Assembly (NCBI GenBank): GCA_030390025.1
Contig: CM059432.1
Location: 25,050,001 to 25,114,000 of the forward strand
Source of the DNA: Squalus acanthias
Taxonomy: Eukaryota
DNA length: 64,000 nucleotides
Direction of reading: 5' to 3'
Position 1 is the stretch's first letter, and the number at the start of each line of letters is the position of its first letter. Positions 5,890 to 56,723 of the stretch are shown piece after piece. The translations under genes were made by a program, and so were the position numbers. Below the pieces are notes generated by a model. The model saw only the letters and a program-made list of their open reading frames with translations. It was not told the DNA's origin and ran no database searches.

Positions 5890-6411
5890 AATAGTGAAAA
5901 GCTAAAAACAATGGAGGTCCAAAGAGACTTAGTGATCCTAAGTCATAGATCATTAAAATGTCATGGACAGGTACAGAAAATAATTAAAAAGACTATTGGA
6001 ATGCTGGCCTTTATATCAAGAGTACTAGAATACAAGGGTTTGGAAGTCATGCTACTGCTATGCAAAGCCCAGTTCTGGGCACCACTGCTTAGAAAGGTTC
6101 AGTTCTGTGTACCACACCTTAGGAAGGATATATTGGCCTTGAAGGGAGTGCAGCATAGGTTTACCAGAATGATACCCGGACTCCAAGGGTTAAACTACAA
6201 GGAGAGATTACACAAACTAGGTTAGTATTCCCTGAAATTTAGAAGTTTAAGGGGTAATTTGATCAAATTTTTCAAGATATTAAGGGGAACTGATGGGTAA
6301 ATAGAGAGAAACTATTTCTGCTGGTTGGAGAATCTAGGACTAGGGGACATAGCCTAAAAATTAGAGCCAGGCCTTTCAGGAGTGAAGTTAGGAAACACTT
6401 CTACACACAAA

Positions 6412-7305
6412 GGGGGAAAAATTCAGTTGGTTGCGCCTCCCGTTAGCGCCTTAAGAGGGCGCTAATGGGGCGCAAAGCATCTAGCGCCCAGGCGCGGCGA
6501 AGTTTGCGCCGCTCGCGAAATTAACTAGACATTTTGCGGCGGCGCTAAACGCTACTGCCACGATCTCCTGCGCCGGCAGATCGTGACGTCAGTCGAGTGC
6601 GCAACGCCCCGGTATCGCCCCGGAGAGGATATTGAGTGGCGCCCCCTGCCTTACCGCCTGACGCAAGCAACGACAGGTTGAGGGGAGCATTCTGCAGTCA
6701 TGAAGGGAAAGGGGGAGCCGCTATTTAAAGGTGACCGCTTCCTGCCTTTTATTGTTGGTGCCATTTTTGAACTACGCATTCTGAGAGAGAGAGGGAGAGA
6801 CTTCTGGAGAGATTCAACGCTGTGTGAAGGAGTTTTGGGTACTGAGCAGCACTTTGCAGGTTCATTTTGATTTGCCATTCCTTGTATCGATTTAGAAGAG
6901 ACTGTGGGGGCTGCACTCTGAGCTCTTTGCCTGGTACTCTCCATTGTTCTTTCCAGCAGATTTGATGTGCAGGTCTCACCAGGCAGAGATTCAAGGCTGC
7001 AATGAGCAGGATGTGGATGGAAAGCAAGGTTAACCAGCCCCTTTAGGAACTGGCCCGCGCCATTGTGTATGTGTTCCATTGCTGACTGACATTACATGAG
7101 CTTCGCCAGCGCTCTGAGGTAGCGCCTCGCTCCTCGGCCTTTGCGCCTTAAGACAGGTGTGAAGCGCCTGATTTAACGCTCCAATCACCTCCAGGGGCGA
7201 TGAAAGTCAAGTTTGCAGTCGGTGGCGATAATCAGCGCCAGGCGCTAATCTTTGCGCCCGGCCGATAATTGCGCCCCAAATGGGGCGATACTGATTTTCT
7301 CCCCC
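6412..7305 (-). mobile_element. Harbinger-derived MITE, unit 1
   Basis: TIR GGGGGAAAAATTCAG / CTGATTTTCTCCCCC, TSD AAA (6409-6411, 7306-7308). One arm is homologous to the terminal region 21185-21466 of the transposase-coding Harbinger. Confidence 0.92.
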
Positions 7306-7325
7306 AAAGGGTGGTAAAAGTTTTG

Positions 7326-8218
7326 GGGAGAAAAATTCAGTTGGTTGCGCCTCCCGTTAGCGCCTTAAGAGGGCGCTAATGGGGCGCAAAGCAGCTAGCA
7401 CCCAGGCGCAGCGAAGTTTGCGCCGCTCGCAAAATTAACTAGACATTTTGCGGCGGCTCTAAACACGACCGCCACGATCTCCTGCGCCGGCAGATCGTGA
7501 CGTCAGTCGAGTGCGCAACGCCCCGGTATCGCCCCGGAGCGGATATTGAGTGGCGCCCCCTGCCTTACCGCCTGACGCTAGCAACGACAGGTTGAGGGGA
7601 GCGTTCTGTAGTCATGAAGGGAAAGGGGGAGCGCTATTTAAAGGTGACTGCTTCCTGCCTTTTATTGTTGGTGCCATTTTTTAACTATGCATTCTGAGAG
7701 AGAGAGAGAGAGACTTCTGGAGAGATTCAATGTTGTGTGAAGGAGTTTTGGGTACTGAGCAGCACTTTGCAGGTTCATTTTGATTTGCCATTCCTTGTAT
7801 CGATTTAGAAGAGACTGTGGGGGCTGCACTCTGAGCTCTTTGCCTGGTACTCTCCATTGTTCTTTCCAGCACATTTGATGTGCAGGTCTCTTCAGGCCGA
7901 GATTCAAGGCTGCAATGAGCAGGATGTGGATGGAAAACAAGATTAACCATCCCCTTTAAGAACTGGCCCGTGCCATTGTGTGTGTGTTCCATTGCTGACT
8001 GACATTACATGAGCTTCGCCAGCGCTCTGAGGTAGCACCTCGCTCCTCGGCCTTTGCGCCTTAAGACAGGTGTGAAGCGCCTGATTTAGCGCTCCAATCA
8101 CCTCCAGGGGCGATAAAAGTCAAGTTTGCAGTCGGTGGCAATAATTAGCGCCAGGCGCTAATCTTTGCACCCGACCGATAATTGCACCCCAAATGGGGCG
8201 ATACTGAATTTCTCCCCC
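7326..8218 (-). mobile_element. Harbinger-derived MITE, unit 2
   Basis: TIR GGGAGAAAAATTCAG / CTGAATTTCTCCCCC, TSD TTG (7323-7325, 8219-8221). Direct repeat of unit 1. Confidence 0.92.
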
Positions 8219-8583
8219 TTGAACTCTCTCCCACAAATGGCAGTTGATGCTAGGTCAATTGTTAATTTTAACTCTGAGATTGATAGATTTCTGTTAACCA
8301 AAGGTATTAAGGGATATGGGGCAAAGGAATTAGGTCACAGATCTGCCATGATCTCATTGAATGGCGGAACATGATCGAGGGGCAACATGGCCTTCTCCTG
8401 TTCCTATATTCCTGTTGTGCTACACGGGTTTACCAAAATATGAAGGGTAACAATAGTGATAATGTAATTAATCAACTGTTCGTTTTAACAGATTTGCATT
8501 TCCTAACGATGCAAGTTCTTCAATTGTGGAACCCTTCTACTTGTATAGCTATACAGACAACCTATGGTGCTGTCATTTAATGT

Positions 8584-8784
8584 GATGATGTGGAGATGCC
8601 GGTGTTGGGCTGGGGTGGACAAATGTGAGAAGTCGCACAACACCAGGTTATAGTCCAACAGTTTTATTTGAAATCACAAGCTTTCGGAGCGCTGCTCCTT
8701 CATCACCTGACGAAGGAACAGCGCTCCGAAAACTTGTGATTTCAAATAAAACTGTTGGACTATAACCTGGTGTTGTGCGACTTC
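8584..8784. mobile_element. Minimal Penelope-like insertion made only of the 3' terminus plus its inverted copy
   Basis: Same terminus as 26240-26365. Inverted repeat of ~77 bp (8628-8705 / 8708-8784). TSD TGTCATTTAATGT (8571-8583, 8785-8797). Confidence 0.88.
8702..8741 (+). ncRNA. Minimal type-I hammerhead ribozyme motif (PLE type), mutated
   Basis: ATCAC-CTGACGA-AGGAACAGCGCTCC-GAAA-ACTT-GTGAT: CUGANGA and GAAA boxes, stem I ATCAC/GTGAT. Stem II and the AAGCTT palindrome each carry one substitution. Confidence 0.65.
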
Positions 8785-9362
8785 TGTCATTTAATGTAGC
8801 AATGTTAGAAATTGGGAAAGCTTTAGTGCCTTCACTAACAGTGTTTGTAATTAAAGATGAGTAACCTAGATCCATTTAGGCCAAAATGTATTTGGCAGAA
8901 TTCATATGCACTTGATTAGGCAAATCATACCTGTGACTTCAGGGTATTGGGATCTTTGTGCAAAGTTATTTTACATTAAATTGATTGCAGTAATTTTTAT
9001 AAATCCACAGGAAGCATTCCTAGACAATCACCATGAGTACCTCACGCATTTGAGCGCTCGTGGAGGAGGAGGGAGATTGGGAATCATCTCAGTTATCTCC
9101 ATGGCTAAGGTCCTCGTCAAGCAGGTATTCTGAAGGTGAAGAATGCCCCAGGTCACAATGGATCATCTTTTGTGACCTTTATTACAGATAATTGTGATTC
9201 TCAGGACTGCTTTAATGGCAGTGCTGGAGGACAACCAAGGGTATTTCTTTTACATGAAGGCAGTTCCAGAGATTTACAGAGTAGCCTTTATCTGAAAGGT
9301 GATGGTGCGAGATGGGGATCCAGCCGTATTAATATGAGCGATTCATATAAATATGACTGATA

Positions 9363-11168
9363 GGGGTAGAAATTAGGTCGCGCCCCATTTGGGGCGCAAA
9401 TATCGTCCGGACGCAAATATTAGCGCCTGGCGCTAATTATCGGCACTGATGGGAAACTTCACTTTTACCGCCCCGGGAGGTGAGTGGAGCGCTAAAGCAG
9501 GCGCTGCACACCTCTCTTAAGGCGCAAAGGCCGAGCAGTGAGGCGCTAACTCGGAGCGCTGGCGAAGCTCATGTAATGTCAGTCAGCAATGGAACACACA
9601 CACAATGGCACGGGCCAGTTCTTAAAGGGGATGGTTAATCTTGTTTTCCATCCACATCCTGCTCATTGCAGCCTTGAATCTCGGCCTGAAGAGACCTGCA
9701 CATCAAATGTGCTGGAAAGAACAATGGAGAGTACCAGGCAAAGAGCTCAGAGTGCAGCCCCCACAGTCTCTTCTAAATCGATACAAGGAATGGCAAATCA
9801 AAATGAACCTGCAAAGTGCTGCTCAGTACCCAAAACTCCTTCACACAACATTGAATCTCTCCAGAAGTCTCTCTCTCTCTCTCTCAGAATGCATAGTTAA
9901 AAAATGGCACCAACAATAAAAGGCAGGAAGCAGTCACCTTTAAATAGCGCTCCCCCTTTCCCTTCATGACTACAGAATGCTCCCCTCAACCTGTCGTTGC
10001 TAGCGTCAGGCGGTAAGGCAGGGGGCGCCACTCAATATCCGCTCCGGGGCGATACCGGGGCGTTGCGCACTCGACTGACGTCACGATCTGCCGGCGCAGG
10101 AGATCGTGGCGGTAGTGTTTAGAGCCGCCGCAAAATGTCCAGTTAATTTTGCGAGCGGCGCAAACTTCGCCGCGCCTGGGCGCTAGCTGCTTTGCGCCCC
10201 ATTAGCGCCCTCTTAAGGCGCTAACGGGAGGCGCAACCAACTGAATTTTTCTCCCCAAAACTTTTACCACCCTTTGGGGGAGAAAATCAGTATCGCCCCA
10301 TTTGGGGCGCAATTATCGGCCGGGCGCAAAGATTAGCGCCTGGCGCTGATTATCGCCACCGACTGCAAACTTGACTTTCATCGCCCCTGGAGGTGATTGG
10401 AGCGTTAAATCAGGCGCTTCACACCTGTCTTAAGGCGCAAAGGCCGAGGAGCGAGGCGCTACCTCAGAGCGCTGGCGAAGCTCATGTAATGTCAGTCAGC
10501 AATGGAACACACACACAATGGCACGGGCCAGTTCTTAAAGGGGATGGTTAATCTTGCTTTCCATCCACATCCTGTTCATTGCTGCCTTGAATCTCGGCCT
10601 GGAGAGACTTGCACATCAAATGTGCTGGAAAGAACAATGGAGAGCACCGGGCAAAGAGCTCAGAGTGCAGCTCCCACGGTCTCTGCTAAATCGATACAAG
10701 GAATGGCAAATCAAAATGAACCTGCAAAGTGCTGCTCAGTACCCAAAACTCCTTCACACAACGTTGAATCTCTCCAGAAGTCTCTCCCTCTCTCTCTCAG
10801 AATGCGTAGTTCAAAAATGCCACCAACAATAAAAGACAGGAAGAGGCCCCTTTTAAATAGCGCCCCCCCCAGCCCCACAGCGATTGATAGCGTTCCAGTC
10901 TTCTGGTCGTTGGAAGCGCCAGGCGGTAAGGCAGGGGGCGCCACTCAATTTCCGCTACGGGGCGCCCCAAGGGCGTTGCACCATGGAATGACGTCACAAT
11001 CTGCGCGCGCAGGTGGTCGCAGCGGTAAGTTTTAGCGCCGCCGCACAATCTCAAGTTAAGTTCTCGAGCGGCGCAAACATCGCTGCGCCCGGGCGTTAGC
11101 GGCTTTGCGCCCCATTAGCGCCCTCTTAAGGCGCTAACGGGTGGCGCAACCAAGTGAATTTTTACCCC
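9363..11168 (+). mobile_element. Composite Harbinger-MITE dimer (units 9363-10255 and 10276-11168) carrying a captured 20-bp CR1 spacer
   Basis: Outer TIR GGGGTAGAAATT / AATTTTTACCCC and a single TSD ATA (9360-9362, 11169-11171). Interior ~9555-10511 is an almost exact inverted copy of ~7070-8026. Confidence 0.92.
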
Positions 11169-11284
11169 ATAGTCTGGAGAATCAGAAAATAAAATTTTGG
11201 AAAATTAAGAAGGGCAAGTGAAAGGTAAAACTGTGAATTCATGGGAGATGGTTCCCCACCACGGCATGTATAAGTGAGCCACAA

Positions 11285-19968: not shown

Positions 19969-21026
19969 TTAATCCTCCTCCTCCTCTCCCTCTTCCTCCT
20001 CCTGAGGTGGACCTTCAATCCCTGGTGGCAATGGCTGGGCCCTCAGAATGGCCAGGTTGTGCAGCATGCAGCACACAATGATAAAAAGGGAGACTCGATC
20101 AGGGGAATACTGCAGGACTCCTCCAGAGCGGTCAAGGCAGCCGAACCATTGCTTTAGCACCCCAATAGTCTGTTCGATCAGGTTCCTGGTGGCGGTATGG
20201 CTGTCATTGTATGCATGCTGAGCAGGAGTGTTGGGGTTGCAGAGGAGTGTCATCAGCCAGGTGGCGAGTGGATAACCCTTGTCATAACCCATCAGCCAGC
20301 CGTGAGCTTCATGTGGTGGGTGGAACAGTGCTGGGACAGGATGAATGCATCGTGGCTGCTGCCAGGATAGCGGGCATTGATGGCGAGGATGAGCTGTCTG
20401 TGGTCACACACCAACTGAACATTCAAAGAGTGGTAGCGTTTGCGGTTATGGAACACCCTCTGCACTGTGATGAGGTGCCCGCAATGCCACGTGGGTGCAG
20501 TCAATGGCGCCCTGAATCATGGGGAAGCCCGCTATTGTTGCAAAGCCACATGAGCATCGTCCTGCTTCTCTCTGGTGATGGGGAATGAGATGTACTCCCT
20601 TCTCCTTCTGTAGAGCATCTGTTACCTCCTGGATGCAGCAATGGACGGCGAACTGTGAAATCTTTGCAATATCCCCTGTTGAAGCCTGGAAGGAGCCACT
20701 GGCATAGAAATTGACAGCAACTGTAACCTTAACTGCCACTGAGAGAGACATCCTGGTCCTGAGCTGAGGCTGGAGGTCTGGCTGTAGGAGGTGGCAGAGC
20801 TCTGTGACTACCTCCTTGCTGAAGCAGAGCCTTCTAAGACACTGCTCCTCTGAGAGATGAATGTAGGAGAAGTGCTCCCGGAAAACCCTGGGAGGGTCAG
20901 GCCTCCTGTTGCGAGTCTGTCGGCCCTTCTCCTACCTCTGGCCACATTTGGCAATCTCTGTCTCTGCATTCGTTGCCTCCGACGTAGTTGCCGGGGGGCA
21001 AGGTGGAGTACCAGTACAGCCCCCAT
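19969..21026 (-). pseudogene. Harbinger DDE transposase (HARBI1-like, DDE_Tnp_4), frameshifted
   Basis: Fragments [80 protein letters not shown], and an acidic tail. Confidence 0.92.
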
Positions 21027-21469
21027 AAATGAGAGAAAAGAGGACGTAGAAATGTTCAGCGCAATACAAGTGAAAAAACTGTTAGAACAGCAACAAAGCA
21101 AAAAATGGGAAAATGTGAACGCAGCCAAAACGCTATCTGACAAACCAGCAATGAATCTGATCTCCCAATGAACCAGTAAGTGATCCCTTTAAATAACGCC
21201 TGGGAGCGGCAATCCCAGGTATCAACGCCTGCTATTTCTGTCGTTCTCAGCGCCAGGCGGTAAGTCGGGGAAGCGACTGAATTTCGCATCCGGGCGCTAA
21301 CAGGGCATTGCACACTCATTGACGTCACGGTCTGAGTGGCGCTAGAGGGCCAGGTGATAAGTATTAGTGCTGGCGCTAAATGCCAACTAAATTTCACGGG
21401 CAGCGTTGAAATTGCCGCGCCTGGACGATAAGCACTTAGCGCCCTATGGTATCGAATTTCTAGCCCTAG

Positions 21470-22185
21470 GAACTGTGCAGGAGCAAAGTTAGGTGTCCAT
21501 GTACACATGTCACTAAAAGCAAGTGCACAGGAACAAAAATTAATCAAGACGTCTAATGGAATGTTGGCTATATCAAGGAGGGGGAAGTATAGAAAGAGCG
21601 AATGTTATGCTTCAGTTGTGCAGAGCTTTGATCAGACCCCATCTGGACTACTGTGTTCAGTTTTGGACACCGCATCTCAGGAAGGTCTTGGAGGGGTTAC
21701 AGTGCAGATTTACCAGAATATCAGGCTTAAAGGGTTAAATTATGAGGACAGGTTGCATAAACTTGGCTTGTATTCCATTGAGTTTAGAAGATTGTGGGTG
21801 ATCTGATCAAAGAGTTTAAAATGATAAAGGGAATCGATAAGCTTGATACAGAGGAACTATTTTCTCTGGTGGGGGAATGCAGAACAAAAGGGAATAATCT
21901 TAAAATTAGAGTTAGACCATTTAGGAGTGAACTCAGGAAGCACTTTTGCACACAAAGGGTGGTGGAAATCTGGAACTCTCTCTGCCAAAATGCTGTTGAT
22001 TCTGGGTCAATTGAAATTTTTGAGACTGAGACCGATAGATTTTTGTTAGGTAAGGGTATCAAGGGATATGGATCAAAGACAGCTAAATAGAGTTGAGGTA
22101 CAGAATCATATCATAGATATGATCTGATTAAATGGCAGAACAGGCTTGAGGGGTTAAATGGTCTACTCCTGTTCCTACGTTCCGA
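21470..22185 (+). mobile_element. CR1 3' fragment
   Basis: ORFs 21556-21738 and 21794-22090 (RT C-terminus), then 3' UTR. Confidence 0.85.
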
Positions 22186-27434: not shown

Positions 27435-28327
27435 GCAGGAAAAATCAGAGAGCAAGTTATTATCTTAATGGCGAGAAACTGGAAAGTACTGCAGTACAAA
27501 GGGATCTGGGGGTCTTGGTGCAAGAAAATCAAAAAGTTAGTATGCAGGTGCAGCAGGTGATCAAGAAAGCCAATGGAATGTTGGCTTTTATTGCGAGGGG
27601 GATAGAATATAAAAACAGGGAGGTATTGCTGCAGTTGTATAGGGTATTGGTGAGACCGCACCTGGAGTACTGCATACAGTTTTGGTGTCCATACTTAAGA
27701 AAAGACATACTTGCTCTCGAGGCAGTACAAAGAAGGTTCACTCGGTTAATTCTGGGGATGAGGGGGTGGACATACGAGGAGAGGTTGAGTAGATTGGGAC
27801 TCTACTCATTGGAGTTCAGAAGAATGAGAGGCGATCTTATTGAAACATATAAGATTGTGAAGGGGCTTGATCGGGTGGACGCGGTGAGGATGTTCCCAAT
27901 GATGGGTGAAACTAGAACTAGGGGACACAATCTTAGAATAAGGGGCTCCTCTTTCAAAACTGAGATGAGGAGAAACTTTTTCACTCAGAGGGTAGTGGGT
28001 CTGTGGGATTTGCTACCCCAGGAAGCTGTGGAAGCTACTTCATTAAATAAATTTAAAACAGAAATAGACCGTTTCCTAGAAGTAAAGGGAATCAGGGGTT
28101 ACAGGGAGCGGGCTGGAAATTGGACATGAGTTTGAGTTCGGATCGGTCAAGGCCCTGCGGGTGGCGGAGCGGGCCCAGGGGCCGAGTGGCCTGGTCCTGC
28201 TCCTACTTCTTGTGTTCTTTAGAGTTGAGGTTGGATCAGATCAGCCATGATCTCATTGAATGGCGGAGCAGGCTCGAGGGGCCGATTGGTCTACTCCTGC
28301 TCCTATTTCTTATGTTCTTATGTTCTT
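27435..28327 (+). mobile_element. 5'-truncated CR1 inserted in the PLE, with two tandem 3' UTRs
   Basis: RT C-terminus in ORF 27371-28129; 3' UTR-like blocks at ~28130-28220 and ~28222-28327. Confidence 0.9.
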
Positions 28328-28548
28328 ATAGGGGATGGCTTCTTTAACGTGGTTAGGGTGGAAGCTGGAGAAGTGGAGCATCGTGAGGTTGTCCGTGGGC
28401 TTGCGGTAGAGTGAAGTGCTGAGGCGTCCGTCTTTGATGGAGATTCGTGTGTCCAAGAATGAAACCGATTCTGAGGAGTAGTCCATGGTGAGTTTGATGG
28501 TGGGATGGAACCTGTTGATGCTATCGTGTAGTCCTTTCAGTGATCCTT

Positions 28549-30010
28549 CACCTTTTTTGAACAGTGGGGTAACATTCGCTCCCCTCCAATCCATGGGAAC
28601 TGTTCCAGAGTTTATAGAATTTTGGAAGATGACCAACAATGCATCTACTATTTCTAGGGCCACTTCCTTAAGTACCCTAGGATGTAGATTATCAGGCCCT
28701 GGGGATTTATCGGCCTTTAATGCCGTCAATTTCCCTAACACCATTTCCCTACAAATACTGATTTCATTCAGTTCCTCCCTCTCATTAGACCCTATGTTCC
28801 CTGACATCTCTGGGAGGTTATTTGTGTTCTCCTTTGTGAAGACAGAGCCAAAGTATTTATTTAATCGGTCTGCCATTTCTTTGTTCCCCATTATAAATTC
28901 CCCTGATTCTGATTGCAGGGGACCTACATTTGACTTCAACAATCTTTTTCTCTTCACATATTTATAAAAGATTTTACAGTCAGTTTTTATGTTCCCTGCA
29001 GGCTTATGCTCGTACTCTATTTTCCCCCTCTTAATTAATCCCTTTGTCCTCCTTTGCTGAATCCTAAACTGCTTCCTATCCTCAGGTTTGCTGCTTTTTC
29101 TGGCCAATTTATATGCCCTCTCCTTGGATCTTATGCTATCCCTGATTTCCCTTGTCAGCCATGGTTGAGTCACCTTTTTTGTTTTATTTTTATGCCAGAC
29201 AGGGATGAACAAATTCTGTAGTTCATCCATGCGATCTATGAATGTTTGCCATTGCCTATCCACCATCAACCCTTTGAGTAACATTCCCCAATCTATCCTA
29301 CCCAACTCGCACCTCATACCATCGTAGTTTCCTTTATTTAAATTCAGGACCCTAGTCTCTGAGTCAACTATTTCATTCTCCATCTTAATGAAGAATTCTA
29401 TCATATTATGATCGCTCCACCCCAAGGGGCCCCGCACAACAAGATTGCTACTTAATCCTTTCTCGTTACATAATACCCAGTCTAAGATGGCCTGGTCTCT
29501 AGTTGGTTCCTCGACATATTGGTCCAGGAACCCATCCCGTATACACTCCAGGAATTCCTCCTCCACAGTATTGTTACTAATTTGGTTAGCCCAATCTATA
29601 TGTAGATTAAAGTCACCCATGATAACTGCTGTGCCCTTATTGCACGCATCTCTAATTTCCTGTTTAATGCCATCTCCAACCTCTGCATTACTGTTTGGGG
29701 GTCTGTATACCACTCCCACTAACGTTTTCTGCCCCTTGGTATTTCTCAGTTCTACCCATACGGATTCCACATCATCAGAGCTAATATCCTTCCTTACAAT
29801 TGTGTTAATCCCCTCTTTAACCAGCAATGCTACCCCACCTCCTTTTCCTTTTTGCCTGTCTTTCCTGAATATTGAATACCCCTGGATGTTGAATTACCTT
29901 GTTCACCCTGGAGCCATGTCTCCGTAATCCCAATCATATCGTATCAGTTTACTTCTATTAGCGCAGCTAATTCATCCACCTTATTACGAATGCTCCTCGC
30001 ATTAAGACAT
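28549..30010 (-). pseudogene. CR1 ORF2 APE endonuclease plus linker
   Basis: LNARSI, ITETW, GGGVA, VYRPP, MGDFN, SDH motifs; a stop and a small frameshifting deletion near 29890-29950. Confidence 0.9.
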
Positions 30011-35425: not shown

Positions 35426-36966
35426 GGGGGGAAATTCAGTAGCTTAGCGCCTCCCATTAACACCTGCAGATGGCGGTAATGAGGCGCTGATGCAGTGGCG
35501 CAGGGGTGAGGCAAATCCAGCGCTGCAGGGCAAATCCAGCACCCACCCCCCGCCGCCCCCCATTGCACCACCGGTATGAGGTACCACCAAGGACTTCACC
35601 GCCAGGCAGATCGTGACATCAGTGAATGTGCAACACTCACTGGGCTCCCGATCTGGAAAATTCATTGTCGCCACTTATCTTAGCGCCTCGACCAGACAGC
35701 GACAGGGAAAGCTGGCGTGCAGCTGCAGGAAGCTGACTCCAGCGACGTTATTTAAAGGCATCAGCATTCATCAATTGCAGCTGTCAGGGCAGGTTAGTTT
35801 CAGTGGTTTCTTGTCAGTTTCACCCAGTGGAACAGTTTGTATGAGTAATTTCAAACTTCTTTTGTATCAGCAGTCTACTGGCAAGTGCAAAGTAGCTAAA
35901 TTTATTGTTCAAAGATTCAAATTGCTACACTTGGAAACATTAATGGGGGCTGCATTGGCATGCCACCTCGCCCTCCAGGATCTATGGTGGAGGGAGTGTA
36001 AGCAGTGAGAAATATGGGAACATGTGTGCAGAGGGATGAAGAGGGACATCAGGCTTTCACCAGGAGGCCTTACCCTCCGAGGGTATTCCGACAGCACTTC
36101 TCCTACCTTCAATTAAGCGAGGAGCAGTGTATTAGATGGCTCTGCATCACCAAGGTGGTGGTCACAGAACTCTGCCACCTCCTCCAAACAGACCTCCAGC
36201 CTCACACCAGGATGACTTAAACCCCAGATCCCTTTTGCTCACCACATGCCCACCATACAATCCCTGTGTCAAATCATATCATAGCGTCCTCCTGGGCGCA
36301 AAGGTGAAATAAGAGAGACCACAAAATATTGCAAACTCCATTAATAAATTTATGCATAAACATATCACACATATCACATTCATTCTAATAACTAATGACC
36401 CTTGTGCCTGCCATAATTGAATAGCTGTCATTGTGCGCAAGGCGTGAGGTGTGGGTGTGAGTGTTGGTAGGTAGAGATTGTTGGTGGGCGAGCGCAGCGG
36501 GTGTGGTGCTTTGGGCAGTGTGGGAAGCTTATGGTACAGATGGTGGTATGTAGCATTAGTTGAAGCATTGAATCACCCTGGCCACCCGACTGAGGTGGAT
36601 CTGCCATGAGCACTACTGCTTCAGTCCTCCGGCTCCTTTTCCTTGTTGTGCTTCTCCTTGCTGAGGCAGCTGCACAGCCAGCAATGCTGAGAATGAGGTG
36701 CTGCAGTATCAATGAACCTCCCCTTTAAGTACTGGGAAAAGCCTGTGGCAATGATGAGTTGAGATTGGACTGCACCCAATATTGGTCCACCCTTTCAGTG
36801 TAACGCCACTGAGCTAGGCGTTTAAGACTTGATTTAGGGCCCCGATCATTTCTTTGAGCAGTGAGAATTAATTTTGCATGCAATCTAAAGCATGAGCACC
36901 TGGTGTTAATTCTCAAACTTTTCTAAAGATACCGCCCATTCCTGGGCTATAATGAATTTCTAGCCC
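35426..36966 (+). mobile_element. Internally deleted Harbinger element
   Basis: TIR GGGGGGAAATTCA / TGAATTTCTAGCCC; transposase N-terminal stub RRPYPPRVFRQHFSYLQLSEEQC...ELCHLLQ (35943-36220) homologous to ~20760-20920. Confidence 0.82.
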
Positions 36967-42907: not shown

Positions 42908-45442
42908 TGAGTCCGGATCACGTCATGTATCGTGACATAAACCCAAGATCCCGGTTGAGACCGTCTTCATGAGTGCGGAACTTGGCTATCAGTTTCTGCT
43001 CGATGATTTTGCGTTGTCGTGTGTTTCTAAGGTTGCCTTGGAGAACGCTTACCCGCAGATCCGAGGCTGAATGTCCTTGACTGCTGAAGTGTTCCCCGAC
43101 TGGGAGGTAACAATCCTGCCTGGCGATTGTTGCGCGGTGCTCGTTCATACGTTGTCTCAGTGTCTGCATGGTGTCGCCGATGTACCATGCCGCGGTGCAT
43201 TCTTTCCTGCAACGTATGAGGTAGACAACGTTGGCCGAGTCACATGAGTATGTACCATGTACCTGGTGGGTAGTGTCCTCACGTGTGATGGTGGTATCTG
43301 TGTTGATGATCTGGCATGTCTTGCAGAGTTTGCCATGGCAGGGTTGTGTGGTGTCGTGGTCGCTGTTATCCTGAAAGCTGGGTAATTTGCTGCGAACGAT
43401 GGTACTTCTGAGGTTAGGCGGCTGTTTGAAGGCAAGTAGTGGAGGCGTGGGGATGGCCTTAGCGAGGTGTTTGTCGTCATCGATGACATGTTGAAGGATG
43501 CGAAGAACATGGCGTAGTTTCTCCGCTCCGGGGAAGTACTGGACGACGTAGGGTACCCTGTTGGTTGTGTCCCGTGTTTGCCTTCTGAGGAGGTCTATGC
43601 GATTTTTCGCTGTGGCCCGTCGGAACTGTCGATCGATGAGTCGAGCGTCATATCCCGTTCTTACGAGGGCGTTTTTCAGCGTCCGTAGGTGTCCATCGCG
43701 TTCCTCCTCGTCTGAGCAGATCCTGTGTATTCGCAGGGCTTGTCCATAGGGGATGGCTTCTTTAACATGGTTTGGGTGGAAGCTGGAGAAGTGGAGCATC
43801 GTGAGGTTGTCCGTGGGCTTGCGGTAGAGTGAAGTGCTGAGGTGTCCGTCTTTGATGGAGATTCGTGTGTCCAGGAATGAGACTGATTCTGAGGAGTAGT
43901 CCATGGTGAGTTTGATGGTGGGATGGAACTTGTTTATGTTATCGTGTAGTCTTTTCAGTGATCCTTCGCCATGGGTCCAAAGGAAGAAAATGTCGTCGAT
44001 GTATCTGGTGTACAGCGTTGGCTGGAGGTCCTGTGCAGCGAAGAAGTCTTGCTCGAACTTGTGCATGAAGATGTTGGCGTATTTGGGTGCGAATTTGGTC
44101 CCCATGGCTGTTCCGTGTGTTTGGGTAAAAAAATGGTTGTCGAAGGTGAAGACATTGTGGTCAAGGATGAAGCGGATGAGTTGTAGGATGGCGTCTGGAG
44201 ATTGGCTGTTGTTGATGTTGAGTACTGAGGCTGTTGCAGCGATGCCGTCATCGTGGGGGATACTGGTGTAGAGTGCCGATACGTCCATCGTGGCAAGGAG
44301 TGTTCCTGGTTCAACTGGTCCGTGGGTGCTGAGTTTCTGTAAGAAGTCTGTAGTGTCGCGACAGAAGCTGGGGGTTCCCTGTACGATGGGTTTCAGAATG
44401 CCCTCGACGTATCCAGAGAGGTTCTCACACAGGGTTCCATTGCCTGATACGATAGGACGTCCGGGTGTGTTGGCTTTGTGTATCTTTGGGAGGCAGTAGA
44501 AGTCTCCCACGCGGGGAGTACGTGGGATGAGAGCGCGTAGGATGTTTTGAAGGTCTGGATCGAAGGTCTTGATCAGTCTATTGAGTTGGCGGGTGTGTTC
44601 TTTGGTCGGATCTGCGGGTAGCTGTCTGTAGTGTTCCTGGTTGTCCAGTTGTCGGTATGCTTCTTTACAATAGTCCGTTCTGTTCTGTATGACGATGGCT
44701 CCTCCTTTGTCCGCTGGTTTGATGACAATGTTGCGGTTGGTCTTGAGAGCGTGGATGGCGTTGCGTTGTGCTCAGGTAACATTCTGGACTGTCTTGTGAG
44801 TGCGGCTGATGAATCTGGCGTTGATGCATCTCCTGACAGCTTGAGCATACATGTCAAGCTTGGGGCAGCGACCCTCCGGAGGGGTCCAGTTTGACTCTTT
44901 TTTCTTCGGTTGCTGCACTGCGAGTCCCTCTGTCTGCTGTTCTGGATCATTGATTGTCTCATTGGGTTTGTTGCTGACATCTTGGGATTTGTGGAAGTAT
45001 TCCCGGAGCCTCATTCTCCTGATGAATTCCTCCGTGTCTGCCGCGAGACCGATGGGGTCCATTTTGGTGGTTGGGCAGAACTTGAGCCCTAGGGCGAGAA
45101 CTTTGATTTCGTCTGGTTGAAGGGTATGGTCGGACAAGTTGACGATGGACTTCCCTGTGGTTGCAGCCGTGGTACCGGGGGAGGCTTGGTTGCTGCTGGT
45201 GGTGATGCCGAGTTTCTCAAGCTTCCTCTTCTTGATGCGCATGTAGGCAGCGTAGTTCCGTTGCCTCGTCTGTTTGGTGGTGTCTCGTAACTGGTCTGCT
45301 GTGTCCTGAGCACAGGCTGAGAGCATGGACTCTATCTTGGTTTCGAGGTTGTGGCGTTTGCTGTAGAGCTGGTGTACGAGATGGTGGAGGAGTGTGCGAG
45401 AGGTACGACGGCAGAGTCTCTCAGCGTAGCTATTCATCAAGT
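42908..45442 (-). mobile_element. Penelope-like element (long ORF, 3' UTR absent)
   Basis: TSD ATCTATTCCATCA (42895-42907, 45443-45455); the empty site is visible in Harbinger copy A at ~39958-39970. Confidence 0.95.
42918..45440 (-). pseudogene. PLE polyprotein (RT plus GIY-YIG endonuclease), ~840 codons with one in-frame stop
   Basis: KPADKG, LPKIHK, GRPIVS, DVSALYTSI, GTAMG, RYIDD, VVYLIRC..WYIG. ORFs 44772-45440 and 42918-44510 are in frame across a single TGA at 44772-44774. Confidence 0.93.
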
Positions 45443-54289: not shown

Positions 54290-56723
54290 GGGGGAGAAAT
54301 TGGGTGCCTTTGCGCTTCTCGTTAGCGCCCCCTGGGGGTGCTAACAGGACGCAAATGACTTTGCGACTGGGCGCAGCGCTGACATCGACTCCCGCCATAC
54401 TCGGCGGGCATTTTGCGGTGGCGCTGCGGCGTTGCGCCCCAATCTCCTTCGCCCAGAGATCGTGACATCATCGCCGTGTGCATCACCCCGGTAGCACCCC
54501 GGACCCGAAATTGACTTCCGCACCCTGCAGCAGTGCCGGGCGAAAACTCCGACAGCTGCAGGAGGCGTGCATTGGGCAGCCGGCCGCTTAGGGGGTGATG
54601 ATTAAAGGCGAGGTGGCCGAGGTAAGTAAAAAAAAAATTACCTTTCCTGTTCAGGTTTTTTTCGCGGGTCCTGCCCACAATCGATCAGCCCGGCACTCTG
54701 CTTGAGTGCCGGGCTGATTGCGCAGGATCGTGGCTGCCTTGGTGGGCCAGGTAGGTAATTTTTAAATTGCAGAGCCTGCAGCGATGACCCTTCCCTTTAA
54801 GGGAAGGAAGGAGCCTTTGAATGCGGCAGCGCAGCACGGCCCAGTGTAGGGGGTGGTGGTTTGTGTAAGCTTCACCTCTGACTTCTGAGCGGTTCGAATC
54901 GCTCCCACTCCCTTGGTTCTAGACCTTGGACTTATTTGGGGGTTGTGATAAAAGGTGCAGCAGACAACTGAGTTTGATGAAAGAACTTCAATCTTTATTA
55001 AAAAGGTAAAACACAAATAATAACACTCTTAACACTCTAAAGGTGGGGAACACTTCGGTACAAGCGAGGGAAATGACAGTAGAACAATACTTCACCCCTC
55101 CCAACGCCACTTTATTAGCTAAGTTAGGTTTTGAAGGACCAGGGATAATGCTCACCAATCCTTTGACAGTTGGGCTAAATCGCGGTTTTGGGGTTCGCTG
55201 TTTATGGTGGTTAGTGTCTGCCGTACCCCATACGCGGTAGAGGACTTCACCTGGGTCTCTGGTCAGTCTTTGCGAGTCCGCTGATGTGGTAGGATGTCGA
55301 TTTGGATTTATCTGGTGAGTACCCAATTTCTTTTGGTTAGCAATAGGGTTTAGAGTCTTTGGGAAAATCTTACCCAGGGGTAAGTCAAGAGTAGATTGTA
55401 GAGTGGAAACTTTGCGGTTTTTCGGGTTTTTCCTCCCTTGAGTTGGTCTTTGTTGGTCGCGGTGGCCTGTTATTACCCGGTCAGTTGGGGGTAATATGCG
55501 GTTGTTGGTTTCTTGAGGCCTTTGGTTTCCGCGACGGTTTTAGGCCTTGTCTAGTGTGTCGGTCGACCTCGTGGAGCCGTCGGTGACTTGTTGCTGCTTG
55601 TTGCTCCGGGTGACTGTGTTGGGACCGTTGTTGGAGGTCCATCGAGGTGGTATCTTCACAAGCTGGACTCAGGTGTGTCTGAGTGGTGAGCGATGCCGAT
55701 TCGCTTCCAGCTCGACTTGGGTCTGTGATGTTGCTCCTTGTCTCCACACTCGACTGTGTGTGTGATGCTGATGACCCGCTTGTCTCGACCTGCCTTCACT
55801 CTCGAACTGCTTAATGGGCCTTTAATTATACTAAATTGAAGTGGCCTTATCTGCCCGCCAAATCTGCTCAGTCCATTGTCTGGTTTTGGCGGGTTCGTTA
55901 ACGGTAACGACTTTACTAGCGTGTTAACTGGTTTTGAACAGGCCTTCAATCTCACCCATTGAACATGGCCTTATCTGCGCGCCAAATCTGCTCGGTTCTT
56001 TGTCTGATTTTGGCGGGCTAGTTACCAGTAACCGTTCTGTAAGTGTCAAATGGCTTTTGGAATGGCTTGCATCCTGTCGATCTCCTCAGTTGATCACTGG
56101 TGATTGATTTCGTGTTTAGTTTTCTAGGCTGGACTCGGTCTTTCTATAGAATGGGTCTGAGTTGGTTTTATTATGCATGTCTCTGATGGGCCCTGTAATC
56201 GGTTTTGATGGGGCCTGTATTTTGGGTGGGACTGTCTTCTCCCAGGGTCTATTGTGCAAATGTTAATGTCTGCTGGGGCTTGAGTGAGGTCATCCCGGTT
56301 CCCCAGACAGTGTAATTAACTGCAATAGCCAAACTGCTTTTACAGAGGTCTATCCCACCTCCTTGTCCCTTTACAGGCCCAGACATGTTTTTAAAATGCC
56401 AAAACTTGGTTTTTGGTCTTAAATTCCTTAGGTTAGGCCCAAATGCATTTTTATCACTCTGAGGTAGTTCCAAAGTCCTTTTTCCTTAGGTTTTGGGGAT
56501 CTGCAAATTTTGGAAACCTTACACCAGTGTGTAGCGCTGCTGAAGTCTCTGCCCCGATATTCGGGGTTAGTGCTCCAAGAAGGAAGTGGAGCACTTGATT
56601 TAGTCCCTCTTGGGATGCTAAAACTGAATTTTGCGGTCACCAGCGCTAATTACCGTCGGGTGCTAAAGTTTGCACCCAGGCGATGTTAGCGCCCCAAAAT
56701 GGTCGATACTGAATTTTTCCCCC
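54290..56723. mobile_element. Harbinger-type MITE (54290-54844 plus 56524-56723) interrupted by a solo LTR
   Basis: TIR GGGGGAGAAATT / AATTTTTCCCCC, flanks TAA/TAC, TTAGCGCC motifs. Confidence 0.85.
54845..56523 (-). mobile_element. Long solo LTR related to 13845-15632
   Basis: TGTA...TACA termini, TSD CCAG (54841-54844, 56524-56527), minus-strand TATAATT at ~55825-55831 and AATAAA at ~54994-54999. Confidence 0.88.

Follow-up and report, generated by a model that had tools for sequence, protein, structure and literature searches.

In a two-copy mammalian reporter, long-tract gene conversion mostly ends as a triplication by annealing (Hartlerode et al., PMC5104497), and conversion between neighbouring transposable elements is raised when they lie less than 10 kb apart (Fawcett and Innan, PMC6598467). 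In the Pack-TIRs of Tan et al. (2021; PMC8277862), elements with terminal inverted repeats (TIRs) hold more than 100 bp of DNA that is not transposable element (TE) sequence, the source has no TE within 100 bp, and microhomology of 1-36 bp is typical, though not obligatory. Here we describe a locus in Squalus acanthias at which four MITEs (miniature inverted-repeat transposable elements) of Harbinger type lie at positions 6412 to 11168 of a stretch of 64,000 nucleotides (assembly GCA_030390025.1, contig CM059432.1, 25,050,001 to 25,114,000, forward strand; the whole stretch is called the window). Two of the four units, together with 20 bp between them, form a compound in which a resident MITE has gained one unit from a neighbouring tandem pair. 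The structure is genuine in the sequence, and rather than an element of a new kind it is most likely a natural case of an outcome already known for DNA repair.

Four MITE units and their host CR1

The units U1 to U4 are each 893-894 bp long; U1 and U2 lie on the plus strand and U3 and U4 on the minus strand (Table 1). A first-pass annotation, made by a model from the letters alone, had placed all four at positions that were reproduced here. It had also called the arrangement a palindrome, a loose word for near-identical arms that sit 1.5 kb apart. U1 and U2 differ in 39 of 894 columns (4.4%), and their flanking triplets are AAA/AAA and TTG/TTG, respectively; both pairs had already been read as separate target-site duplications (TSDs) inside a CR1 element. 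Taken alone, U3 is flanked by ATA/CAA and U4 by TTT/ATA. Neither unit has a duplication singly, and U3 and U4 together keep one, ATA/ATA.

The host of U1 and U2 is a decayed CR1. The stretch upstream of U1 has 56% identity in tblastn with the sibling CR1 open reading frames of the window, and after excision of U1 and U2 the host gives a DNA alignment of 66-71% to eight longer CR1 stretches in the window. With both units removed, the CR1 reading frame passes through the 20-mer that separates them. Based on this alignment and reading frame, the 20-mer at 7306-7325 belongs natively to the CR1 and has one of the two duplications at each end. Its exact reverse complement lies between U3 and U4 with no CR1 flanks, as had been noticed at first reading, and this is its sole other occurrence: perfect matches in the 64-kb window number exactly two, at 7306 (+) and 10275 (-). 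The chance of such an exact match is about 1e-7. Five other places come within five mismatches, all with four or five, and four of these lie inside aligned CR1 copies. The 14 bp between the two insertion sites (7309-7322) are loosely like the family terminal repeat, a likeness that might have drawn the second insertion.

The CR1 resumes immediately behind U2 and every duplication has its partner, and for these reasons it was rejected that the 1.1-kb spacer between U2 and U3 is inverted at present, although the arms could act as a substrate for an inversion. The spacer includes a near-perfect hairpin (8621-8792; 172 bp, 85-bp arms 94% complementary, 2-nt loop), a possible fragile site 570 bp from the resident element.

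Switch points and the copied tract

Columns 1-703 of U3 differ from U2 at five positions, compared with a family distance of 39/894 (P 8e-9), and the following 191 columns differ at 30. Against U1, U4 differs at 69/333, 14/280 and 5/45 columns in successive segments, and then at 0/236 from column 659 (P 3e-5 for the last). U2 and U3 agree against U1 and U4 at 12 sites. The earlier manual count of about five mismatches between 9555-10511 and 7070-8026 was accurate, with five in 957 bp, and the maximal tract is 958 bp.

Other samples were consulted as assembled contigs. Part of the window is present in 24 runs listed, all in this form, of which five of organism A stand at a share of 0.74-0.75; shares of 0.2-0.35 in 17 lower-ranked runs were not used. 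Four of the 24 were compared, over 8850-10330 only, with a bridge threshold of 31 bases. Letter shares in the family depth refer to the 40 rows listed out of 102. Five of the 12 sites at which U2 equals U3 are among the rows listed, and there the other letter makes up 99.8, 99.9, 94.4, 99.6 and 91.3% of the family depth in run X1 (sample S1). The alleles common to U2 and U3 are thus rare in the family, and U3 therefore descends from U2 itself rather than from the family in general.

The remaining, outer parts of the compound are an older resident copy, B, of another subfamily. That they form a clearly different subfamily with a TIR pair of its own and a common ATA duplication had been proposed before and stands, in that ATA/ATA is found only around U3 and U4 together and the terminal repeats of B pair at 12 of 16 bases. 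The presence of B-type sequence in loose ends of other contigs indicates that B is a subfamily. Most of the stretch 10512-10840, to which the first-pass annotation had given no assignment, belongs to a third lineage: across the 280 sites of columns 334-613, U4 has 14 differences from U1, 16 from U2 and 10 private changes. The ends of B are 15-20% from U1 and U2 and its middle about 5%, which makes B either a mosaic subfamily or the product of an older conversion. The 45 bp at 10512-10556 are either native B or a short U2-derived patch, which would make U4 a three-part mosaic of B, U2 and U1.

Both switches are internal to the unit and in register, with no loss or filler, and their intervals overlap. 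The first-pass annotation had both of them in the same block of about 45 bp. This holds for the U4-to-U1 switch, which is confined there, but U2, U3 and U4 are identical over columns 614-703, and the U3 switch, bounded only by columns 613 and 704, may lie anywhere in these 90 bp. Two things weaken the argument from a common block: this width, and the fact that B and U2 have no longer perfect match than the 90-bp interval. Among the perfect blocks of B with U1 the 45-bp block ranks third, after 75 and 58 bp. Folding of U3 (z = -4.2; 20 shuffles) revealed nothing special at the switch.

These flanks and this mosaic pattern refute an independent insertion of U3 and U4 around a 20-mer that was similar by chance. 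Double insertion commonly yields tandem dimers (PMC5932611), but a pair of such insertions is hardly credible here: each unit would need its own duplication, the 20-mer between them is exact yet has no CR1 around it, and both units are chimeras of their neighbours. A nested or hybrid-element transposition was likewise rejected, the switches being internal and without duplication.

Table 1. Positions of the MITE units, their parts and associated features in the window
Feature	Position	Strand	Description
Host CR1 (long interspersed nuclear element), 3' region	5944-6411	+	Decayed ORF2 (open reading frame 2) upstream of U1; tblastn and DNA alignment
Left AAA copy of the U1 TSD	6409-6411	+	
U1	6412-7305	+	894-bp Harbinger-type MITE, separate insertion; 14/16 terminal bases match
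Donor tract	7070-8027	+	U1 3' part, 20-mer, U2 5' part
20-mer between U1 and U2	7306-7325	+	AAA duplication, 14 bp, TTG duplication
U2	7326-8218	+	893-bp MITE, separate insertion with TTG/TTG
Spacer, 1144 bp	8219-9362	.	TTG, remaining CR1, 172-bp hairpin, other DNA, ATA at end; ancestral orientation
Left ATA copy of the B duplication	9360-9362	+	
U3	9363-10255	-	Chimera: 5' part = U2, 3' arm = B; no duplication of its own
3' arm of B	9363-9553	-	B-type terminal repeat; 29-30/191 columns differ from U1 and U2
B/U2 switch interval of U3	9554-9643	-	90 bp, columns 614-703
Copied tract	9554-10511	-	958 bp, 5 differences from donor
20-bp CR1 spacer, exact copy	10256-10275	-	No CR1 flanks
U4	10276-11168	-	Chimera: 5' part = B, 3' part = U1; no duplication of its own
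45-bp block with no difference among the four units	10467-10511	-	U4-to-U1 switch here in the simplest model
U2-like 45 bp of U4	10512-10556	-	U4 = U2 at 5/5 sites separating U1 from U2
5' part of B	10557-11168	-	Distance to U1/U2 about 20% (columns 1-333) and about 5% (columns 334-613); terminal repeat of B type
Right ATA copy of the B duplication	11169-11171	+	
Harbinger-type transposase remnant (DDE_Tnp_4)	19969-21470	-	Upstream region 69% alike to MITE columns 54-265

Origin of the compound element

The explanation that we favour, and hold to be somewhat probable, is a single out-of-register homology-directed repair of B on the U1-U2 tandem pair; the weights given to this and the other explanations are matters of judgement. 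The setting consists of two family copies inserted separately, 17 bp apart, in the decayed CR1, with B in the opposite orientation 1.14 kb away at ATA. B would have been broken near columns 614-703, and a broken end would have entered the tandem pair, either that of its own chromatid or that of the sister or the homolog. Synthesis would then have run via a terminal repeat and the 20-bp spacer into the second unit, after which the new strand may have annealed to the other B end one unit out of register (synthesis-dependent strand annealing with a long tract). Transposase would not be needed for this repair step, and a first invasion of U2 by both ends would also account for the short U2-like patch in U4.

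The product opens with the 5' part of B, continues with the 3' part of U1, the spacer and the 5' part of U2, and closes with the 3' arm of B, a gain of exactly 913 bp. The ends of B and its duplication are kept, the flanks are not exchanged, both junctions lie in homology, and the unchanged, intact donor is 1.5 kb from the copy. The compound has intact terminal ends and is without evident function, and no further copy of it occurs in the 64-kb window. The earlier proposal that a single MITE was repaired by strand invasion is therefore retained to the extent that monomer B gained one 913-bp unit by homology-dependent recombination and not by transposition; two other routes yield the same order. 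The direction first given to the repair, entering unit 2 and leaving from unit 1, had to be dropped, since the mirror-image direction leaves the same product and the direction is unreadable.

Several observations weigh against a single repair event. In a symbolic test, three routes gave the same segment order, and the simplest version of the repair needs both switches inside 45 bp. If the U2-like 45 bp of U4 are native B, B must equal U2 at five sites (chance 0.01-0.03 if these are independent), and the absence of any private change there has a chance of 0.19. The five differences between donor and copy crowd into 204 of 958 bp (7400-7603; 9978-10181), with P 0.008 unweighted and 0.03 with a CpG weight of 20. 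Furthermore, in the four runs no contig piece among those listed crosses the 20-mer or a switch, which is uninformative either way. The clustering is poorly explained by plain ageing, and a later homogenisation of the arms, or a donor on the other haplotype, is possible.

Donor and copy are 0.52% apart (95% interval 0.17-1.2%), where U1 and U2 are 4.4% apart and the relative stands at 4.5%. CpG transitions make up three of the five differences, and a fourth touches a CpG. In run X1 a contig matches 8850-9387 with two differences in 538 bases (0.37%) and reaches 25 bases into the MITE, below the bridge threshold; run X3 has no differences in 315 and 186 flank bases and may be the source. The interval of the 0.52% value takes in the 0.37% that separates the window from sample S1. 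The five differences may therefore be allelic, and they give no date for the event; the only mutation rate consulted, 7e-10 per base and generation, is that of the epaulette shark (PMC10587355).

Differences of allelic size are what would be expected if donor and copy came from different haplotypes, as they would in a route of two crossovers. In this route, an ectopic inversion between U1 and B would be followed, in a heterozygote, by an unequal crossover that joined B from the standard haplotype to U2 from the inverted one, the two now having the same direction. The observed order is reproduced exactly, and it is documented that ectopic recombination between TIR elements in inverted orientation can cause inversions and leave chimeric copies (PMC2775673). 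We nevertheless regard this route as unlikely. It takes two events whose crossover points would be independent and yet fall in overlapping intervals, even though U1 and B share perfect blocks of 75 and 58 bp, both longer than the one of 45 bp. The runs showed no inverted haplotype, though the stretch compared could not have revealed one.

The common interval of the two switches would be accounted for by one crossover if a 913-bp circle, released by recombination between U1 and U2, had integrated into B; a transient three-unit allele serving as donor is equivalent. A circle also predicts a U2 patch in U4 between B and U1, in line with the five of five U2-like sites at 10512-10556, and circular intermediates have been proposed for duplications (PMC7450558), although the cited cases have microhomology junctions. 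The patch itself, however, is open to a simpler reading. At 9599 the U2 letter is common in the family (other letter 44% in X1); the other four U2-like sites are absent among the rows listed, and all MITE rows listed have at least 96.9% of the other letter in some run. On the ranking of rows that we take this to reflect, the U2 letters are probably not rare and B may have them natively; two-ended repair, moreover, yields the same patch in one event. Thus we consider the circle quite unlikely as the source of the compound, and a single repair remains our preferred explanation.

The one plausible error of assembly follows from the inversion route: this sequence would also result if the individual carried the U1-B inversion on one haplotype only and the assembly had jumped between haplotypes inside the 90-bp block. 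The allelic size of the donor-copy differences fits this explanation as well, and the data from other samples are contigs, none of those listed crossing the 20-mer or a switch. A haplotype jump on 90 identical bases within units that are 87-95% similar is unlikely with long reads, and the window, which is without N and has four near-identical units resolved, was presumably built from them. The U3 letter at 10140 is absent from 98% of the family depth and from U2. The left junction of B is present in a sample that differs from the window, although the compound itself is not tested by it. These points make an assembly chimera quite unlikely.

In run X19, from the relative, a 954-base contig matches 8850-9362 with 23 differences in 513 bases; the match stops at the ATA, beyond which the contig has at least 161 further letters unlike the MITE; this would be an empty site without B. 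At 13 or more MITE sites compared in X19, the U3 letter is common in organism A and nearly absent in organism I, where the B-type end is scarce. These MITE subfamilies seem to have spread after the split of organisms A and I.

End-to-end joints of the family with other spacers link 10250 to 9362 in X1 (depth 33) and in X3 (depth 45), in both cases deeper than the flank, and 10249 to 10279 in X19. Dimers as such are therefore not rare elsewhere. Such joints, in organism A and in the relative, would suit a U1-U2 dimer that transposed locally into the ATA site and later had its outer parts replaced by B-type conversion, or an older dimer family spread in the genome, and the outer ends of the U1-U2 pair do match at 15 of 16 bases. 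But the 20-mer arose here, bounded as it is by two duplications of the CR1 site, a third copy was not found in the window, and two later conversions would have to stop in register at the same interval. A transposed dimer is accordingly very improbable.

Family placement and comparison with known systems

At the ends of U1, U2 and B, 12-14 of 16 terminal bases pair as terminal inverted repeats, and the target-site duplications AAA, TTG and ATA have the 3 bp that is a feature of PIF/Harbinger elements. Pfam gave no match for the two longest open frames in the units (2/2), and of eight frames in the window two were matched, none within the four units. MITE columns 54-265 are 69% alike to 21447-21238, which lies upstream of, and on the same strand as, a DDE_Tnp_4 frame (20403-19972; E 1.3e-14). 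We take this domain, PF13359, to be a marker of Harbinger transposases. From loose ends, the flank consensus of the family is approximately A(A/G)AGAC ahead of a W-rich triplet and GTCT(T) behind it, with an agreement of only 0.4-0.7. This consensus resembles the right half of the Harbinger3_DR motif, and the three local sites match at 5-7 of 12 bases.

Taken together, the 3-bp duplications, the short terminal repeats, the 69% link to the DDE_Tnp_4 region and the flank consensus place the family in PIF/Harbinger, by the features used for this in PMC2836001. Like Harbinger3_DR and mPing (PMC3016246, PMC2836001), it combines a 3-bp duplication and short terminal repeats with what may be an extended palindromic target preference, and its 5' region is related to a transposase-bearing element, here within the window. 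Unlike in those systems, no mobilising transposase is tied directly to this MITE family. The family is abundant, with a high copy number; summed contig depth over the MITE is mostly 1-3 million, compared with 7-25 in unique flank (X1, X3), values that are not themselves a copy number. More distant, longer relatives (58-67%) with both MITE ends lie at 54290-56723 and 35426-36966. Metagenome and viral contigs searched for family copies with a 25-base pattern gave 0 matches in each. Elsewhere in the window, a 527-aa open frame (28310-29893, minus strand) has CR1-like sequence in frame with a stretch like the retroelement frames at 42918-44771, a junction of two elements for which we assume these family labels.

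As a record of ectopic recombination with a gain of copies in a vertebrate germ line, the locus is unusually readable: donor, recipient, all target duplications and the 20-bp tag survive side by side. It indicates that no transposase is needed for a TIR element to double and to gain flanking DNA, and that apparent dimers need a check of their duplications before they are counted as double insertions. It adds no new mechanism, gene or function, and as a single locus it is silent on frequency, but it makes a good teaching example. One may speculate, at long odds, that tandem MITE pairs in this genome regularly act as templates for out-of-register repair, or release circles that re-integrate, and that end-to-end junctions and the host DNA between them are in this way packed inside intact terminal repeats, the compounds then transposing. 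If true, loaded TIR elements and new dimers would have a source driven by homology, one that is removed by design in the published Pack-TIR pipeline.

A literature search, from which subscription journals are largely missing, listed no title or opening of an abstract that dealt with precisely this natural configuration, and in the part of PMC9879454 consulted nothing was found on a gain from a tandem pair to a single copy. The first-pass annotation had described the compound as a snapshot of Pack-TIR-like capture. There is a resemblance to the single-copy, gap-filled Pack-TIRs (PMC8277862): the break lies inside the element (columns 614-703 of 894), the template is in cis within a few kb (here 1.5 kb), the ends and the duplication are kept, and no transposition is involved. 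The insert is also enclosed by two parts of one TIR element, the B 5' part and the B 3' arm with a single ATA. The comparison does not extend to the published definition. The cargo that is not MITE amounts to only 20 bp and is itself CR1, and the remaining 893 bp of the insert belong to the same MITE family; the source consists of two MITEs inside a CR1, which puts a TE in the flanking 100 bp; and the junctions run via 45 and 90 bp of perfect homology, inside about 370 bp at 95%, in place of microhomology.

Like the double-insertion dimers of McGurk and Barbash (PMC5932611), the U1-U2 pair keeps target DNA in its junction and acted as a recombination substrate, but its two insertions are 17 bp apart and not at one site, and the gain occurred at a neighbouring locus and not by expansion in place. 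With inversions of the Galileo type (PMC2775673) the locus has in common chimeric TIR copies in opposite orientation and internal switch points. There, however, the duplications are exchanged and the segment is inverted, whereas here the duplications are in place and a unit has been gained. The transfer between neighbours described by Fawcett and Innan (PMC6598467) is likewise driven by homology between copies less than 10 kb apart and produces mosaic elements, but it is described there as replacement with no change in copy number, and here a whole unit plus 20 bp of flank was added.

The reporter of Hartlerode et al. (PMC5104497) behaves in the same way as proposed for B, in that a broken repeat copies a two-copy array out of register, anneals, and gains a repeat together with the intervening DNA while the donor is unchanged. 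That system has engineered direct repeats and an induced break, whereas the present product is natural and inherited and its recipient is a third, inverted and diverged copy. The locus is best filed as natural long-tract non-allelic recombination between neighbouring transposon copies, with one unit gained.

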